Origin: an uncultured Acidobacteriota bacterium
Lineage (GTDB): Bacteria; Acidobacteriota; Terriglobia; JAIQFV01
Reading direction: 5' to 3'
Assembly: GCA_964537865.1 (NCBI GenBank)
Contig: CAZIDA010000001.1
Location: 1 to 47,026 of the forward strand
DNA length: 47,026 nt
Under the pieces are notes generated by a model. The model was not told where the DNA came from. It saw nothing but the letters and a program-made list of their open reading frames with translations, and did not search any database. A program made the translations under genes and the position numbers. Each line of letters starts with the position of its first letter. Positions within the stretch are counted from its first letter, which is position 1. Below, one piece after another: positions 32,239 through 43,064 of this stretch.

Positions 32239-32405
32239 GCCGATTCAAGAATCACATTTCCCCGAATGATTCCGGATACTGAAGTTGAAGGTTGGGATGT
32301 CCGTTTCATGTCCAAATTGAATGCTGCTTCTTCCGCACTCAGACGTCAACCTTTGGAATATCGTTTTGTTGTCTTCATGAGATCGGCGTAAAATGCCGAG
32401 GAAAC

Positions 32406-32603
32406 ATGAAACAGGCCAAGAAATCTAAAGGCGAGTTGATCGAGAGAGAATCTGTTCCTGACTTGCCTGCGTATAGTGAGGATGGGGTGGATCTGACTCT
32501 GATCCGATGGATGCTTTCCCTTTCGCCTGCCGAACGGCTGGAGACACTGCAGCAGAATGTGCAATCACTTTTGAGGCTGCGCGGTGACCAAACCGAGACC
32601 TGA
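32406..32603 (+). CDS. small protein partner of the downstream nucleotidyltransferase (antitoxin-like position)
   Basis: ATG 32406 follows GAGGAAAC and gives 65 aa (MKQAKKSKGELIERE..LIRWMLSLSPAERLETLQQNVQSLLRL). It overlaps the next ORF by 20 nt. Confidence 0.5.
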   Translation: MKQAKKSKGELIERESVPDLPAYSEDGVDLTLIRWMLSLSPAERLETLQQNVQSLLRLRGDQTET

Positions 32604-33111
32604 CTTCTTAAGAATACTGGAAGTGTTGACCGCGCATCACGTTGATTTCATCGTGGTGGGTGGCGTGTCTGCTGTCCTTCATGGAGCCCCCGTCGCCACC
32701 TTTGATTTGGATGTGGTCCATTCACGTCAACCGAAAAACCTTCATCGCCTGCTGCGAGCCTTGGAGGATTTGGGATCTCGCTATCGAGGTGTCGGAAATC
32801 GATCGGTGAAGCCACGGTTGGCTCACTTGCGTACTTCCGGTCATCAATTGTTGATGACGCGAGCGGGTCCGCTGGACCTTCTGGGAGAAATTGGCCACGG
32901 AAGCAGATATGAAGGATTGCTCTCTGAAACAACTGAATTGGAAATACAAAAAGGCGTCAAAATTCGCGTCTTGAATCTCGAGGCGCTCATCCGAATCAAA
33001 ATGGAGACGGCCCGCGACAAGGACAAAGCAGTCATCGCCGTCCTGAAGCAAACCTTGAAGGAAAAAATGAAAAACGGAAGACGGAAGATGGATCCTGTAA
33101 ACGGTTGTTAG
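32584..33111 (+). CDS. minimal nucleotidyltransferase-fold protein (MNT-like)
   Basis: hG[GS]x(9-13)DhD pattern: VVGGVSAVLHGAPVATFDLDVV. The C-terminus has IRVLNLEALIRIKMETARDKD, as in small NTase family proteins. GTG start at 32584. Confidence 0.65.
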   Translation: MTKPRPDFLRILEVLTAHHVDFIVVGGVSAVLHGAPVATFDLDVVHSRQPKNLHRLLRALEDLGSRYRGVGNRSVKPRLAHLRTSGHQLLMTRAGPLDLLGEIGHGSRYEGLLSETTELEIQKGVKIRVLNLEALIRIKMETARDKDKAVIAVLKQTLKEKMKNGRRKMDPVNGC

Positions 33112-38281: not shown

Positions 38282-38385
38282 CGGATCGGCGTCCCATGGG
38301 CCAAGATTTACGCGCGACTCAAAGTCTGATATAAAGTGAAATCGCACGGACCGTGCTAATCGTCAATCTGCGTGTGGGAGATTCA

Positions 38386-39153
38386 ATGAAAGAGAAGAAA
38401 GTTACGACATCCAAAGCGGGAGAAGAGCGCAAGAAGTCCACGTGGTCGGAGTCCTTGTGGGAAAACGCCAAGTCGTTTGCCTTTGTGATTGCGGCGGTTC
38501 TTTTGATTCGCGCCGTGGTGGTGGAAGCGACGGTGGTTCCCACCGGATCGATGCAGAACACCATCTTGATCGGCGATCATCTTTTCCTCGACAAAATTTT
38601 GTACGGCCCGGAAATTCCGTTCACCGATATCCATCTGCCGGCCATCAAACACTACGAGCGCGGCGATGTGATCGCCTTCCGATATCCGGTGGATCCGAGC
38701 GTGGTGTTCGTGAAGCGCCTCATCGGAATGCCGGGCGACACCATTCAGATTAAACAAAAGCAACTTTATGTGAATGGGAAATTGGTGCATGAGCCTTGCG
38801 TGATTCACACCGATCCGCAAATTTATCCCGACAGCGAGTGGATTCCCCGCGAGGCCAGAATCCGAGACAACTTCGGACCGGTGACGGTTCCGCCCGATCA
38901 TTATTTCGCCTTGGGGGATAATCGCGACGAATCGCTCGACGGACGCTATTGGGGATTCGTTCCCAAGGCCAACATGGTCGGCGAGCCGATGTTTATCTAT
39001 TGGTCGTACAACGCGCCCACGTCGGTGTGGACCAGCACGGATCTTTCCGATCGCATCAGCGGCGACGTGAGTATCCTGGCGCACTTTTTCAGTCGGACTC
39101 GCTGGTCGAGGATTGGCAAGATCATCAAAAGCGATTGTGGGGAACCGAGATAG
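38386..39153 (+). CDS. lepB: signal peptidase I
   Basis: Catalytic Ser box VPTGSMQNT, Lys box VFVKRLIGMPGD, and GDNRDESLDGRYWGFV. ATG 38386 follows GGGAGA. Confidence 0.9.
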   Translation: MKEKKVTTSKAGEERKKSTWSESLWENAKSFAFVIAAVLLIRAVVVEATVVPTGSMQNTILIGDHLFLDKILYGPEIPFTDIHLPAIKHYERGDVIAFRYPVDPSVVFVKRLIGMPGDTIQIKQKQLYVNGKLVHEPCVIHTDPQIYPDSEWIPREARIRDNFGPVTVPPDHYFALGDNRDESLDGRYWGFVPKANMVGEPMFIYWSYNAPTSVWTSTDLSDRISGDVSILAHFFSRTRWSRIGKIIKSDCGEPR

Positions 39154-39170
39154 AGCGGAATATCGTGACA

Positions 39171-39257
39171 CACTTCTTCACGCGCACGCGTTGGTCCCGC
39201 ATCGGAACCATCATCCGCAATAATTCCGGAATGCCCGAATCAACCAATACCCGGTAG
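39171..39257 (+). pseudogene. relic second copy of the lepB 3' end
   Basis: It translates to HFFTRTRWSRIGTIIRNNSGMPESTNTR*, compared with the lepB C-terminus HFFSRTRWSRIGKIIKSDCGEPR* (39082..39153). It starts 18 nt after the lepB stop and has no upstream coding body. Confidence 0.5.
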
Positions 39258-39266
39258 GTTGGGTAG

Positions 39267-39293
39267 CCACGGTCAGTGTTCTTCTGACCGTGG
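39267..39293 (+). terminator. stem-loop after the lepB-tail relic (terminator-like, weak U tract)
   Basis: 10-bp perfect stem CCACGGTCAG / CTGACCGTGG with a 7-nt loop, followed by GAATTTGGG. Confidence 0.4.
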
Positions 39294-39582
39294 GAATTTG
39301 GGAAGTCTTTGGTTGAAATGTTGATCGGGTAGTCTGAACTGTTTCCCCCCAGCCCTCATTCTTAACTGGTCACGGTTGTTCTGGCTGGAGCGTTGCGTGC
39401 GGCGCCGGTCGGGGGTATATTTCTGAGAGTCGATGTGGTGACAAATGACCGTCGTCAAGATTCACCCGATGAAACTGGCGCCAAGACCTTGGGTCGAAGG
39501 ATACGTCCTTGATCGCCGCCGAGGTGCTGTTTAATGATGGCGGGGCTCGAAATGTTTACGCGCTCATTTTGACTCGCACAAA

Positions 39583-40164
39583 ATGACAACAACAAGCAAT
39601 GGAACAAAAGTATTCATCGCTGGATCACGACGTCTCTCGCGTTTGACTAACGACGTGAAACGCCGAATCGAGAATATCGTCGACAAGGGTTTCACGGTGA
39701 TTGTCGGGGACGCGAATGGCGCCGATAAGGCTGTGCAGCAGTATCTCAGCGGCCGGAACTACAACAACGTGGTGGTCTTCTGCATGGAAGGCGGCTGCCG
39801 AAACAACATTGGAGGCTGGCCAACGCGAACGATCAAGGCCGCAGACGCAGGACGGCGAAACTTTGCTTACTATTCCACTAAGGATCGGGCGATGGCCGAG
39901 GAAGCCGATTATGGGTTGATGCTTTGGGACGGTCAAAGCCGTGGCACACTCAGGGATGTCGTCGACCTCGTTCGGAAGGGCAAACCGGTCGTAGTTTACC
40001 TCGCTCCCAACAAGTCCTTTTACACGCTTCGGCTGCCCGTTGATCTCGCCGCAATGTTAGATCGCTTTGACCCGACTGCGCTTCATCGAATTGACCGCGA
40101 GTTAGAGGCGATCGCGATGAATGGCACACCGAGTCGCAAGGTCGACACCGCGCCGTTCTTTTAG
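39583..40164 (+). CDS. SLOG-superfamily (DprA/LOG-like Rossmann, DUF2493/YspA-like) protein
   Basis: 193 aa. Motifs KVFIAGSRRL, TVIVGDANGADKAVQQYL and MAEEADYGLMLWDGQSRGTLRDVVDLVRKGKPVVVY follow the pattern I associate with DUF2493/SLOG proteins. Recognised by eye only. Confidence 0.55.
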   Translation: MTTTSNGTKVFIAGSRRLSRLTNDVKRRIENIVDKGFTVIVGDANGADKAVQQYLSGRNYNNVVVFCMEGGCRNNIGGWPTRTIKAADAGRRNFAYYSTKDRAMAEEADYGLMLWDGQSRGTLRDVVDLVRKGKPVVVYLAPNKSFYTLRLPVDLAAMLDRFDPTALHRIDRELEAIAMNGTPSRKVDTAPFF

Positions 40165-40282
40165 TGGTCGCGGGTGGCGCGGGCACGACTTTTCGATGGA
40201 CAAGGATTAGTCTGTTATTAAGGGAATCGTTTTTTTTTGCCATCAAGCCGATACAGTAGCCAGAGCGAAGGGCTATGGGAAC

Positions 40283-40972
40283 GTGAAGCCAAGGATGCGC
40301 GTTTTTGCTTATGTGATCAGGACTGTGAGCCGCGGTTATAGGCTAACAGGTTGCGTCCCATGGGTTAGCCGCGAATTGGTTCTATTCGGGCCGTGTAAGA
40401 AGAGGATGCGCCCCGAGATTGGCGAAGACGATTATATCGTTGGAATCTCTCCTGCGGGTGTCGGGAAAAGTCGGCGAGTCTTGCTGTGGATGCGAGTAAA
40501 AGAGAGAATCACTTTTGGGGAAGCGTACCAGCGCGGAAAGAGTAACTCCCGTTTACGAGCAGCCCGAGGACATGCGATCCATATGAGGCCGAAGCGAGGT
40601 CTGGCTTTCCATCCAGGAGATGTAGGGAGTTACGAACACATCCCTGGTGCCCCTCATGGTGATGATTGGGCGAGCTATGTAGAGGGAAAGCGTGATGTGT
40701 TCTTAATCGGCGCTCCAGAGTCCTGGGTCGCAGAATCTCAGGCACCAGTTGTTGACGGAACTTTGTTGAAGCTTCTGAAGATCGGTGCAAGGTGGAAAGG
40801 GCATGCAACGATCGATAACCCGTTAACGGAAAATGCGAGAGGCAGGCATGCCAAGATCGGAGGGAAGACCGCGCGGCAGATCAGGGAGTGGATCGCGGAA
40901 CGAAGTCCCAGTGAGCGAGTTCAACAATCACACTCTCATACACGTTGTGGTAGAAAGTGTGACTGCGAATAG
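40283..40972 (+). CDS. Nmad2-like protein (nucleotide-modification-associated domain 2), tentative
   Basis: 229 aa. VFAYVIRTVSRGY..LVLFGPCKKRMRPEIGEDDYIVGISP..RRVLLWMRVKERITFGEAY and ..GKRDVFLIG.. resemble the Y.V.....F.P......L..CKP.IR.....GD.IVG.. pattern of Nmad2. The start could be GTG 40283 or ATG 40295. Confidence 0.45.
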   Translation: MKPRMRVFAYVIRTVSRGYRLTGCVPWVSRELVLFGPCKKRMRPEIGEDDYIVGISPAGVGKSRRVLLWMRVKERITFGEAYQRGKSNSRLRAARGHAIHMRPKRGLAFHPGDVGSYEHIPGAPHGDDWASYVEGKRDVFLIGAPESWVAESQAPVVDGTLLKLLKIGARWKGHATIDNPLTENARGRHAKIGGKTARQIREWIAERSPSERVQQSHSHTRCGRKCDCE

Positions 40973-41220
40973 CTGTGTAATCGGGCCACGGGTAGTGAAT
41001 GAAGTTGTTGCGCATATCCAATCCGGTCGACCTGCCTCCAGCGAAGAGCATGCTGCACAAGCCGAGGCGTTTTAGCAATCTCTTCTCTCGGCCATCTTTC
41101 TGACCGGCTGGAGCAACATCGCTTTTTAATATTTGTGGACGATTCCGTCCTCACATATAGTCCCCATGGATTGAATACCGGTGGTTGTTTGAGGACAACG
41201 CTGAATCAGTTAGCAAGGAA

Positions 41221-42201
41221 CTATTCAAATCGCCCGTTTTTAAACGCATCGACCCGCGTAAAGCAGTGGAGTTTGAACTCGTCGTGAATGTACGTGCTTC
41301 TCTGCCCGCAAAATAGTTCGATACCGGCGTCCTTGGTTGGCTTTTCCAACAAGAGCTTTCTTGCATCTTGATCTGCGCTTGGCATGCTGTAACCGATAAT
41401 GACGATTCTCCCAGACGATCGAAGGGCGTACCCAGCCTGAGCCCACAGACCGCCCCAAAACCCCTCCCATTCCCTCCCTCCAGACGTTTCTACGTAGAAA
41501 CGCTTATTTCGCGTGGGCGTTATGAGGGCAGGGAGTGCGGCAGCTCGATGAATTCCATGACACAGAGGATCACACAGTTCTTTGGAGTAGCCCAAGAACT
41601 CGAAGTCCAGTGGATAAAGGATGACAGGTCTATCCGGGAGCGAGTTGGGTCCTCCTTGAAAAAAACCGGTTCTCCCGCCGAAGATGGTACCCCACCAATT
41701 TGTGCTTCCGTGCAATTTGAGCACTTTCACCCTGGATGAAGGGATTGTGTCAATTCCAAGTGAAAAACCATAACCATCGCTGATCTCCCAGAGGCCTGCT
41801 TTTTTAAGAGAGCGCTCACAGGCTTGGTCATAGTTGAATGTGATGACAGTGTCGCCAGGGTGAATCCGCTCGTGTGCCAATCGATCATATAGAAGGGCTG
41901 GCCTTTGGCGCAGGGAAGTGAAGAATTCTGGAATACAAAACCTCACGGTGCCTCGTTTGCTTCCGACATCGCGAAACGTAGCGGCGCGTGAACCCGGTGG
42001 GCATTCATCGAGTTCTGTCAGAATTGATTCCAGATCTTCGAGGCCTCCGTAGACTTCATGCAACTCTTCAATGCAGTTGCGCCAAATGTAATCTTCTGGC
42101 TTGTTGTGCAATATCCAGTTGTACAGTTCTCTCCCTAACTCGCTGGCGAGTGGGTAACCTGCATGACGAGACGCCCCGGCACCAAGTATGTACGTAGTCA
42201 T
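41221..42201 (-). CDS. stand-alone SIR2-like (SIR2_2 type) protein, putative NADase effector
   Basis: 326 aa. N-terminal MTTYILGAGASRHAGYPLASEL (Rossmann GAGxS), ITFNYD (catalytic Asn region), KVLKLHGSTNW (catalytic His). It has no additional recognisable domain, and its GC looks lower than the flanks. Confidence 0.75.
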   Translation of the reverse strand: MTTYILGAGASRHAGYPLASELGRELYNWILHNKPEDYIWRNCIEELHEVYGGLEDLESILTELDECPPGSRAATFRDVGSKRGTVRFCIPEFFTSLRQRPALLYDRLAHERIHPGDTVITFNYDQACERSLKKAGLWEISDGYGFSLGIDTIPSSRVKVLKLHGSTNWWGTIFGGRTGFFQGGPNSLPDRPVILYPLDFEFLGYSKELCDPLCHGIHRAAALPALITPTRNKRFYVETSGGREWEGFWGGLWAQAGYALRSSGRIVIIGYSMPSADQDARKLLLEKPTKDAGIELFCGQRSTYIHDEFKLHCFTRVDAFKNGRFE

Positions 42202-42395
42202 TGGGCTACACCCTGCAAGTGGGACAAGCTGCGATGATCACGCATGCAGCACTTTGGAAGGTCAAACCACAGACATAATATGATGCCTGCACCACTTCTG
42301 CCCTCGGATTCACATATTTTCCCAATAACGCCGCATGACGGCGACTCGTCCAAGTTCCATCCAAAGACCCGTGCCCCGCGGAGCGCACTTCAGAA

Positions 42396-43064
42396 CTAAG
42401 CTCGTGACTTCACGATCGCTTCTTTTTGTCCGGTAGGACAGACGTCGAGGAGCGGGCATTCCAGACATTTCGGACCGCGGGCGGGGCAAACTCTTCGTCC
42501 GTGCCAGATGAGTTGATGGGAGAAACTGATCCAGCGTTCCTGCGGTAGAATCTTCATCAAATCTTGTTCGATCTTCTTTGGATCTTCTTGGCGCGTCAGT
42601 CCGAGGCGCTGCGAGAGCCGTTGAACATGCGTGTCGACAACCACGCCGCCGGCGATTCCGAAGGCCGTTCCCATCACCACGTTGGCGGTCTTGCGCGCCA
42701 CGCCCGGCAGCGTCAGCAATTCCTCCATGGTTCGAGGAACCTTTCCGCCGAATCGCTCCACGATCATCTTCGACGCGGCGCGAATGTTTTTCGCCTTGTT
42801 GCGAAAGAATCCGGTGGAGCGGATTTCTTTCTCAAGCGCCGGCTGCGAGACGCGCGCGAAATCCGCCGGCGTTTTGTATTTCTTGAAGAGAGTTTTTGTG
42901 ACGATGTTGACGCGCTCGTCCGTGCATTGCGCCGAAAGAATGGTGGCCACCAAAAGCTGAAACGGATTCGTGTGCAGCAACGCGCAGTCCGCGGCGGGAT
43001 ACATTTGATCGAGCCGTTTCAAGATGATTGCCAGTCGCTCCTTCTTGTCCATGGAGAGGGCCAC
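42396..43064 (-). CDS. nth: endonuclease III
   Basis: HhH-GPD motifs (LVATILSAQCTDERVN, LPGVARKTANVV) and C-terminal 4Fe-4S cysteines C..ARGPKCLECPLLDVC. Confidence 0.9.
   Translation of the reverse strand: MALSMDKKERLAIILKRLDQMYPAADCALLHTNPFQLLVATILSAQCTDERVNIVTKTLFKKYKTPADFARVSQPALEKEIRSTGFFRNKAKNIRAASKMIVERFGGKVPRTMEELLTLPGVARKTANVVMGTAFGIAGGVVVDTHVQRLSQRLGLTRQEDPKKIEQDLMKILPQERWISFSHQLIWHGRRVCPARGPKCLECPLLDVCPTGQKEAIVKSRA

Follow-up and report, generated by a model that had tools for sequence, protein, structure and literature searches.

Three genes with conflict-type domains lie between lepB and nth in the 47,026-nucleotide stretch of acidobacterial DNA analyzed here (the window), and they are probably three independent units within one small islet, not one three-gene system. 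A preliminary description had read them as a single undescribed defense module. The three domain families that it named are upheld, mostly through matches below curated cut-offs, but the system that it built from them is not.

The islet between lepB and nth

All three open reading frames are present as first described (Table 1), and each carries the motifs quoted for it: IAGSR, VGDANGADK and LWDGQSRGT in gene 1, the N-terminal pattern FGPCKKRMRPEIGEDDYIVGIS in gene 2, and GAGAS, NYD and LHGS in gene 3. The public model of gene 2 is 225 residues long and implies an ATG at 40295, which is the probable start. Database searches returned 2126, 70 and 1796 relatives of genes 1, 2 and 3, respectively, and the window copies retain every invariant column of their families, including all 45 in gene 1. 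These are real, conserved genes. NCBIfam models gave nothing useful.

Table 1. Features of the lepB-nth interval, in window coordinates
Feature	Position	Strand	Description
lepB-end pseudo-copy	39157-39257	+	divergent tandem copy of the ~26 terminal lepB codons, in another frame
Hairpin	39263-39294	+	perfect 11-bp stem, GCCACGGTCAG-N7-CTGACCGTGG(G)
PRTase pseudogene remnant	39445-39586	+	directly upstream of gene 1
Gene 1	39583-40164	+	193 aa; intact; probable DprA-like SLOG; antitoxin-position (second) gene of a PRTase-SLOG pair
Gene 2	40283-40972	+	229 aa from GTG; Nmad2-like; orphan
Gene 3	41221-42201	-	326 aa; solitary SIR2-fold protein (SIR2_2/AbiH-like)

On either side lie lepB (Peptidase_S26, E = 4e-47) and nth (HhH-GPD, E = 3e-26), as had been proposed. 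The dip in GC content reported for the region is real but mild, at 0.527 over positions 39154-42395 versus 0.564 and 0.572 on its two sides. The dip is more evident at the third codon positions of gene 2 (0.517) and gene 3 (0.529); the corresponding value is 0.634 for gene 1 and 0.63-0.72 for neighboring housekeeping genes. The copied end of lepB agrees with lepB itself at 15 of 26 residues in a local alignment (HFFSRTRWSRIGKII versus HFFTRTRWSRIGTII), with approximately 71% DNA identity across 58 nt, and it may have been left by an old integration event at the 3' end of lepB. The hairpin sits within a 93-nt stretch (39256-39348) that is 76% identical by blastn to the DNA downstream of an intact phosphoribosyltransferase (PRTase)-SLOG module at locus L112. 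A search with the hairpin pattern gave one match where none was expected, and the hairpin had no match in Rfam. Rfam, promoter and terminator scans of the region produced no signal above background, and a search for repeats revealed no direct repeats on the flanks that could delimit an island, the boundaries of which we infer from composition and the duplicated lepB end only. The lepB-nth gap is best read as a small, horizontally acquired variable islet.

Gene 3 and its solitary SIR2 family

Gene 3 belongs to the SIR2 superfamily, with a predicted SIR2 Rossmann fold, an NAD-binding GAGxS loop and catalytic Asn and His residues. Foldseek aligned its AlphaFold model (pLDDT 93) over the full length to the SIR2 subunit of SIR2-HerA (probability 1.0, E = 1.4e-8), followed by human SIRT2 and SIRT3, bearing out the original assignment. 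The best structural matches were 8sub, 8w9l and 8wld (E = 1e-8 to 1e-6), and the SIR2 of SIR2-HerA (8w9l) was also the sole match in a PDB sequence-profile search, with NYD and LHGS aligned. Residues G7-S11, N123 and H164 are invariant across the family. The SIR2_2 model (PF13289) scored gene 3 at 21.1 bits, just below the 24.5 cut-off, and matched 37 of 42 relatives.

Two known systems resemble gene 3 in different ways. The SIR2 subunit of SIR2-HerA (Nezha) is its closest structural match, but sequence identity is 13-17% and gene 3 has no adjacent HerA ATPase; no HerA-type ATPase was found in the flanks of the islet, nor was one recurrent in 83 loci of gene-3 relatives. Its closest architectural match is AbiH, the single-gene lactococcal abortive infection protein, which is likewise a stand-alone SIR2-like fold of about 330-350 residues with no partner gene. 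In Pfam, AbiH is family PF14253, which shares a clan with SIR2. The AbiH model matched 4 of 42 gene-3 relatives (best E = 4.6e-5), and gene 3 itself was matched by AbiH in neither Pfam nor PADLOC.

Relatives of gene 3 have no conserved neighbor. No neighboring family appeared in more than five of the 83 contexts, and 124 neighbors were distributed over 119 Pfam families, none of which was seen more than twice. Some neighbors are of mobile or defense type (TrwC/T4CP, TIR_2, SLFN_AlbA_2, relaxases and PD-T4-6-like kinases), and many are plain housekeeping genes (prfB, metK, hypD, ribonucleotide reductase and ETF). We suggest that gene 3 would act alone as an NAD+-consuming enzyme, either an NADase or an ADP-ribosyltransferase. 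It is conceivable, as a tentative reading, that gene 3 is the only gene of the three that matters, and that its family is an undescribed, widespread single-gene defense of the AbiH-like SIR2 kind that would sense infection and deplete NAD+, with genes 1 and 2 as bystanders. The roughly 1800 relatives, always solitary, argue for this reading, as do the invariant catalytic Asn and His, the anti-phage SIR2 subunits among the nearest structures, the AbiH matches and the mobile or defense-type neighbors. Against it stand the many housekeeping neighbors and the missing PADLOC match to AbiH, together with the lack of any visible extra sensor domain in gene 3 and of gene-3 relatives in a scan of viral contigs. 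A housekeeping, sirtuin-like role as a deacylase or ADP-ribosyltransferase may apply instead.

Gene 1 and the deletion upstream of it

By its sequence, gene 1 is probably of the DprA-like SLOG type and belongs to a PRTase-coupled toxin-antitoxin clade. The earlier SLOG assignment holds, and gene 1 is not a split-off sensor domain of ThsA. The family matches of gene 1 all fall below curated cut-offs: Pfam DNA_processg_A at E = 1.7e-3 (18 bits versus a cut-off of 29.6; 19 of 26 family members also match below cut-off, best E = 3e-5), PADLOC ShosA at E = 0.014 to 7e-4 across gene 1 and its relatives (the lowest value in a relative) and PsyrA at 0.015, phrog_289 at E = 1.6e-9, and the DprA-like phrog_768 at 0.007. 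The Rossmann-like match begins at residue 6. A PDB sequence-profile search gave no valid match to gene 1; the HhaI methylase matches that it returned were spurious (E > 0.1).

A PRTase gene precedes relatives of gene 1 (36-88% identity) in all six independent contexts available, a small sample comprising L006, L013, L112, L078 and the viral loci L119 and L120. Among close relatives, the PRTase stop and the SLOG start overlap by 4 bp. In PADLOC, the partner PRTase is matched by PsyrT (E = 5e-18) and ShosT (E = 3e-8), and a SIR2 neighbor is absent from five of the six contexts. A PRTase-coupled branch of YpsA/SLOG genes has been noted by comparative genomics (PMC6459960).

The window holds no working PRTase gene beside gene 1, so the pair is a decayed member of the clade and not a functional one. 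What is left is a 46-codon remnant, overlooked in the preliminary description. In tblastn searches with intact partners, PRTase residues 1-23 aligned to positions 39445-39513 (78-83% identity) and residues 172-194 to 39515-39583 (74-78% identity); the two parts are out of frame with each other and joined at 39513|39514. Alignment of the window with L112 DNA resolved a clean, out-of-frame deletion of 443 bp (L112 positions 134-576), and the junction was identical when L013 and L006 were used for comparison. Codons 24-171 are gone, including the PRPP loop LLFDDLIESG, while the ATGA in which the PRTase stop codon overlaps the start of gene 1 is still there. As judged from these alignments, the remnant is a pseudogene of a ShosT/PsyrT-like phosphoribosyltransferase, the putative toxin. 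The window is a metagenome-assembled contig, and an assembly artefact is a possible source of the deletion.

The original unit would have been a two-gene operon, PRTase followed by DprA-like SLOG, of the ShosTA/PsyrTA kind (type IV toxin-antitoxin or abortive infection). The ShosTA toxin is a PRTase that binds PRPP and perturbs purine metabolism and DNA replication, and the DprA-like antitoxin counters the toxin without binding it, via ssDNA and RecA (PMC11961720, PMC12961424). ShosTA and PsyrTA (RqlHI) are both type IV toxin-antitoxin and anti-phage systems pairing a PRTase toxin with a DprA-like antitoxin, and relatives of gene 1 share this two-gene arrangement and order. They differ in detail: ShosA has 328 residues with an N-terminal SAM domain (residues 1-94; PMC12961424), which gene 1 lacks, and the partner PRTase of gene-1 relatives has 194 residues and no helicase, unlike PsyrT. 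The window differs further in having lost the toxin gene. The 443-bp deletion would have destroyed that gene and left gene 1 as sole survivor, and because the toxin gene is destroyed, the unit is presumably dead as a defense or addiction module. Gene 1 would be at most an orphan antitoxin or a DNA-binding protein.

Gene 1 is intact despite the loss of its partner and could have a retained or a new role. One such role, which we consider rather unlikely, is that of an anti-addiction or immunity gene kept to neutralize incoming PRTase toxins of related mobile modules. All invariant residues, the upstream promoter region and the start context of gene 1 are preserved, and ShosA neutralizes ShosT without direct binding (PMC11961720, PMC12961424), which means that an orphan copy could work in trans. 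However, translational coupling of gene 1 to the upstream reading frame is disturbed, and the window module retains 84-88% DNA identity to the intact L112 module; the deletion may therefore be recent, in which case intactness need not reflect selection.

Gene 2 and the question of a single system

Gene 2 is an orphan Nmad2-like protein with neither of the partners found beside its relatives. The Nmad2 model (PF18753) covered residues 22-88 only and scored 19.8 bits, short of the curated cut-off of 26.1, but within the family 26 of 38 members gave a match at E < 0.01, the best of them at 1.1e-6. Precomputed PF18753 matches are listed for several of the database relatives. The Nmad2-like label given to gene 2 at the outset is further backed by its distant relatives (30-40% identity), all nine of which adjoin an Nmad3 gene (E = 1e-22 to 1e-26). 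A PDB sequence-profile search with gene 2 returned no matches. Foldseek comparison of its model with PDB and BFVD gave non-significant matches (best E = 0.12-0.18, TM 0.44-0.52) that were consistently to EVE, ASCH or YTH-type domains, a weak resemblance to PUA-like folds that serves as a lead only. Scanning of viral contigs revealed no relatives of gene 2.

Nmad2-Nmad3 pairs (PF18753/PF18754, "nucleotide modification associated domains") thus resemble gene 2 over its N-terminal 70 residues, but neither the window nor any of the nine contexts of the close, acidobacterial subfamily has Nmad3. About half of the close relatives (five of nine contexts) instead follow an unannotated 326-aa gene at a distance of 1-2 bp. 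NMAD domains have recently been listed among predicted and validated defense-system domains (PMC13092281). Relatives of gene 2 would function together with a partner, either Nmad3 or the 326-aa protein, which has a PD-(D/E)xK-like motif; alone, gene 2 would be a protein that binds or processes nucleic acids or modified bases. A search of the window for traces of the 326-aa partner, Nmad3 and the island genes at L009 found none. The 326-aa and Nmad2-like proteins form a recurrent, translationally coupled pair in integrase-bearing islands. This pair, which is not in the window, could be a new restriction-like system.

The claim of a three-gene system fails, by a standard that the preliminary description itself had set, because homologues of the three genes do not co-localise elsewhere. 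Relatives of gene 1 occurred in 0 of 18 gene-2 contexts, and no relative of gene 1 or gene 3 lay within 10 kb of a gene-2 relative at 13 genome loci. The 83 gene-3 contexts included a single gene-2 relative and a single gene-1-like gene, the latter with its own PRTase. Among 80 metagenome loci of gene-3 relatives, none had a gene-2 relative and one had a PRTase-SLOG pair, and only 30 of these 80 exceed 6 kb, so that more distant partners would escape. The two partial co-occurrences consist of a gene-2 relative 2.2 kb from a gene-3 relative at L009-L011, convergent as in the window, and a PRTase-SLOG pair approximately 0.9 kb from a gene-3 relative at L078. Both are explicable if these families simply gather in one type of island, though they still carry some weight. 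A 193-aa gene and a 294-aa gene at L009, considered as a possible gene-1 homologue with its partner, proved unrelated.

The window itself argues in the same direction. DNA similarity to intact PRTase-SLOG modules stops at about 40180, just past gene 1, and gene 2 therefore lies outside that unit. Thoeris combines a SIR2-SLOG protein, ThsA, with the TIR protein ThsB, and the window resembles it in bringing SIR2 and SLOG families together within 2.6 kb. In the window, however, these families are on separate, non-adjacent genes that point in opposite directions and have different evolutionary partners, the SLOG is DprA-like and PRTase-coupled, and conserved co-occurrence is lacking. The absence of a TIR gene, already remarked upon, holds for the three genes and 12 flanking ORFs (lepB, nth, acyl-CoA dehydrogenase and similar). 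It is highly improbable that the three genes form one split, Thoeris-like module, with the SLOG protein sensing a nucleotide signal and activating the SIR2 NADase and the Nmad2-like protein generating the signal or serving as an adaptor: all three families are confirmed, the genes stand side by side and have a foreign composition, and there is one distant co-occurrence of genes 2 and 3 and one of gene 3 with a PRTase-SLOG pair, but co-localisation is not conserved, gene 1 comes from a different two-gene operon that has lost its first gene, gene 3 is convergent to gene 2, the 118-bp gap between genes 1 and 2 shows no sequence continuity with the PRTase-SLOG unit, and neither a TIR nor another cyclase gene is present.

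There is likewise only a very slim chance that the orphan SLOG was co-opted after toxin loss as a nucleotide sensor for the adjacent SIR2, whether or not the Nmad2-like protein takes part. If true, a split Thoeris-like module lacking TIR would have been assembled anew; a solitary SIR2 family acting as a single-gene NADase defense is the less far-reaching but likelier of these two possibilities.

Together, these results suggest that an apparent new split-Thoeris cluster is better explained by three units that are independent of one another and of which one is visibly decayed. That unit is a clean example of a dying toxin-antitoxin or abortive-infection module, in which the toxin has been deleted and the antitoxin kept. 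The gene identities, the deletion and the partner statistics are shown directly, and every biochemical activity is inferred. As a by-product, the analysis brings out the solitary SIR2 proteins of soil bacteria as a large family that lacks annotation. More generally, conflict-type domains that stand side by side in one genome can mislead.

Composition and flanks of the islet

Three ORFs were confirmed between lepB and nth, and each contains the motifs quoted in the preliminary description, which also noted a GC content below that of the flanks. This was borne out, with 0.527 in the region against 0.564 and 0.572 in flanking DNA; GC3 is 0.517 in gene 2 (Nmad2-like), 0.529 in gene 3 (SIR2) and 0.634 in gene 1 (SLOG), and 0.63-0.72 in neighboring genes. 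The database relatives listed for genes 1-3 number 2126, 70 and 1796, none with an informative name, and the window copies keep every invariant family column. Genes 1-3 are real, conserved genes.

Directly after the lepB stop codon, in another frame, lies a diverged tandem duplicate of the last ~26 lepB codons (HFFTRTRWSRIGTIIRNNSGMP versus HFFSRTRWSRIGKIIKSDCGEP; DNA identity about 71%). This copy hints at an old integration event, in which an element would have inserted at the 3' end of lepB and brought a substitute end with it. No integrase is left at the islet, and a repeat search of the region found no flanking repeats. About 6 kb upstream of the three genes, a DUF2204/DUF6036-type nucleotidyltransferase gene overlaps the end of a small ORF; this segment (32292-33111) may encode a small nucleotidyltransferase-type toxin-antitoxin pair.

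Features of the window and of related loci (L numbers) from other genomes, metagenomes and viral contigs
Feature	Sequence	Position (strand)	Remarks
103-aa ORF	window	32292-32603	
175-aa nucleotidyltransferase	window	32584-33111	DUF2204/DUF6036-type
lepB	window	38353-39153	Peptidase_S26, E 4e-47
lepB 3'-end second copy	window	39157-39257	
Hairpin	window	39263-39294	perfect 11-bp stem
PRTase residues 1-23	window	39445-39513	tblastn
PRTase residues 172-194	window	39515-39583	tblastn
Gene 1	window	39583-40164 (+)	SLOG, 193 aa
Gene 2	window	40283-40972 (+)	Nmad2-like
Gene 3	window	41221-42201 (-)	SIR2, 326 aa
nth	window	42396-43064	HhH-GPD, E 3e-26
Nmad2-like/Nmad3 pair	L024	9989-11455	tight pair
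Nmad2-like/Nmad3 pair	L026	877-2360	tight pair
~326-aa partner gene	L009	11916-12893 (-)	
~326-aa partner gene	L019	9010-9987	
~326-aa partner gene	L022	9016-10002	
~326-aa partner gene	L115	5019-5999	
~326-aa partner gene	L117	5013-5999	
Gene downstream of Nmad2-like gene	L113	2229-3230	
Gene downstream of Nmad2-like gene	L021	10847-11836	
362-aa neighbor of SIR2 gene	L009	9081-10169 (-)	

The SLOG gene and its phosphoribosyltransferase partner

Gene 1 matched Pfam DprA (PF02481) below threshold (E 1.7e-3), as did 19 of 26 relatives (best E 3e-5, all sub-threshold). PADLOC weakly matched the family to ShosA (0.014 to 7e-4) and PsyrA (0.015), and a stronger match was obtained with phage family phrog_289 (E 1.6e-9, residues 6-148), alongside the "DprA-like" phrog_768 (0.007). 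Because of these matches, the earlier SLOG assignment was retained, and gene 1 is predicted to be a short DprA-like member of that superfamily.

Relatives with 78% (L006-8, L013-18) and 88% identity (L112) are each second in a two-gene operon, whose first gene encodes a 194-aa phosphoribosyltransferase (PRTase) and overlaps the second by 4 bp (ATGA). The same pairing was found in a 47%-identical fragment (L078) and on the (pro)viral contigs L119 and L120, whose gene-1 relatives are 36-38% identical, giving a PRTase partner in 6/6 independent contexts. PADLOC matched this partner to PsyrT (E 5e-18) and ShosT (E 3e-8). When the PRTase was searched against the window by tblastn, only two pieces were recovered, in different frames. 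DNA alignment to L112 yielded two collinear blocks (window 39383-39513 with L112 5-133, and 39514-40180 with L112 577-1242) separated by a clean 443-bp deletion in the window PRTase, with an identical junction against L013 and L006. Codons 24-171 are deleted, the PRPP-binding loop LLFDDLIESG among them, and the remnant ORF meets a stop after 29 codons. DNA similarity to intact PRTase-SLOG modules ceases ~16 bp past the gene 1 stop codon, and therefore gene 2 lies outside this unit. On positive evidence, the SLOG gene is a member of a different module, PRTase-SLOG.

Upstream of the remnant, a 93-nt stretch containing a hairpin (39256-39348) is 76% identical to L112 1286-1379, which lies downstream of the intact module there. 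This stretch could be a terminator or end sequence travelling with the module; Rfam gave no match, and no further copies were found in the window or the other loci searched.

The pairing of PRTase with SLOG is already known. ShosTA is a characterized type IV toxin-antitoxin and defense system (PMC11961720, PMC12961424): its PRPP-binding toxin, a PRTase, interferes with purine metabolism and with replication, and its DprA-like antitoxin, which does not bind that toxin, works through ssDNA and RecA. ShosA has 328 residues and a SAM domain, whereas gene 1 encodes 193 residues and no SAM domain.

Neighbors of the Nmad2-like and SIR2 genes

Gene 2 matched Nmad2, the likeness proposed for it, at 19.8 bits, below the cut-off of 26.1; 26/38 relatives match. 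Its AlphaFold model, a confident one (pLDDT 92.9), had no significant structural neighbors; weak matches were consistently to EVE, ASCH, YTH or McrB-N, i.e. PUA-like domains. The longest ORF starts at GTG 40283 (229 aa); the ATG at 40295 is favored both by the family alignment and by the 225-aa public gene model.

No gene-1 or gene-3 relative occurs within 10 kb of a gene-2 relative at any of 13 genome loci. Nmad3 (PF18754, E 1e-22 to 1e-26) adjoins 9/9 distant gene-2 relatives (L023-L031), whose hosts are Planctomycetes, Steroidobacteraceae, other Proteobacteria and one Methanosarcinales MAG. In five of nine close contexts of the acidobacterial subfamily, an unannotated ~326-aa gene ends 1-2 bp upstream of the Nmad2-like gene. 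Its product carries the motif DIEIES...VIVEAKRGW, which we read as PD-(D/E)xK-like. These pairs, often in islands with integrases and methylases (methyltransferases) and a REase-ARP gene nearby, represent a candidate two-gene restriction-like module. Neither the 326-aa partner nor Nmad3, nor any remnant of them, was found in the window. The Nmad2-like genes of L113 and L021 are directly followed by other genes; among the products are a protein of 333 aa, which has a further PD-(D/E)xK-like motif (IVLIEAKFGS), and one of 329 aa, with a Lar-like zinc ribbon and a weak (E 2e-5) likeness to nucleoside 2-deoxyribosyltransferase at its C-terminus.

The gene 3 model (pLDDT 93.0) has a SIR2 fold over its whole length and no additional domain, in agreement with the original assignment. 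SIR2-HerA/Nezha supplies the nearest structure, its SIR2 subunit (probability 1.0, E 1.4e-8), with human SIRT2/3 next, and the NYD and LHGS motifs aligned to PsSIR2 8w9l. AbiH (PF14253) matched 4/42 relatives. The flanks of the islet hold no HerA or TIR gene, confirming there the reported lack of ThsB. L001, L009, L012 and 80 metagenome loci gave 83 gene-3 contexts to survey. One of them (L009-11) had a gene-2 relative nearby, 2.2 kb off and convergent with two genes between, and another (L078) a PRTase-SLOG pair. No neighbor family recurred beyond 5 loci, and 124 non-redundant neighbors gave 119 Pfam families, none more than twice. They include housekeeping genes (metK, prfB, hypD, ribonucleotide reductase) and mobile or defense-type genes (TrwC, T4CP, relaxases, SLFN_AlbA_2, TIR_2, PD-T4-6-like kinases). 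In L009, L063, L064 and L068, the SIR2 relative adjoins a gene for a 362-aa protein that neither Pfam nor PADLOC matched; the copies are 87-91% identical, from one subgroup of closely related loci, and are the only hint of a lineage-specific neighbor.

One system or three units

The preliminary description proposed the three genes as one candidate undescribed defense module, with the SIR2 and SLOG domains of the Thoeris effector ThsA on separate genes. Homologs essentially do not co-localize in other genomes, a result that the description itself counted against the module: gene-1 relatives are PRTase operon members (6/6), gene-2 loci lack the others within 10 kb (0/13), and gene-3 contexts include each of them once (1/83 and 1/83). 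The three-gene system as a conserved entity is not real. Because of these two single co-occurrences, lineage-specific co-option among the three genes keeps a small residual probability, and we regard it as very improbable; the same two loci are compatible with three families inhabiting the same kind of variable island.

The best reading is that the islet is small, acquired and made of three independent units. The first would be a dead PRTase-SLOG toxin-antitoxin module that left an orphan gene in the antitoxin position, and the second an orphan Nmad2-like gene. The third would be a solitary SIR2 of AbiH-like architecture, presumably an NAD+-consuming enzyme that acts alone. All of the components belong to kinds that are known or have been named before. 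What value remains lies in a clear example of toxin-antitoxin decay, in the large uncharacterized family of solitary SIR2 proteins, and in the Nmad2-like genes that are paired with the 326-aa gene at other loci.
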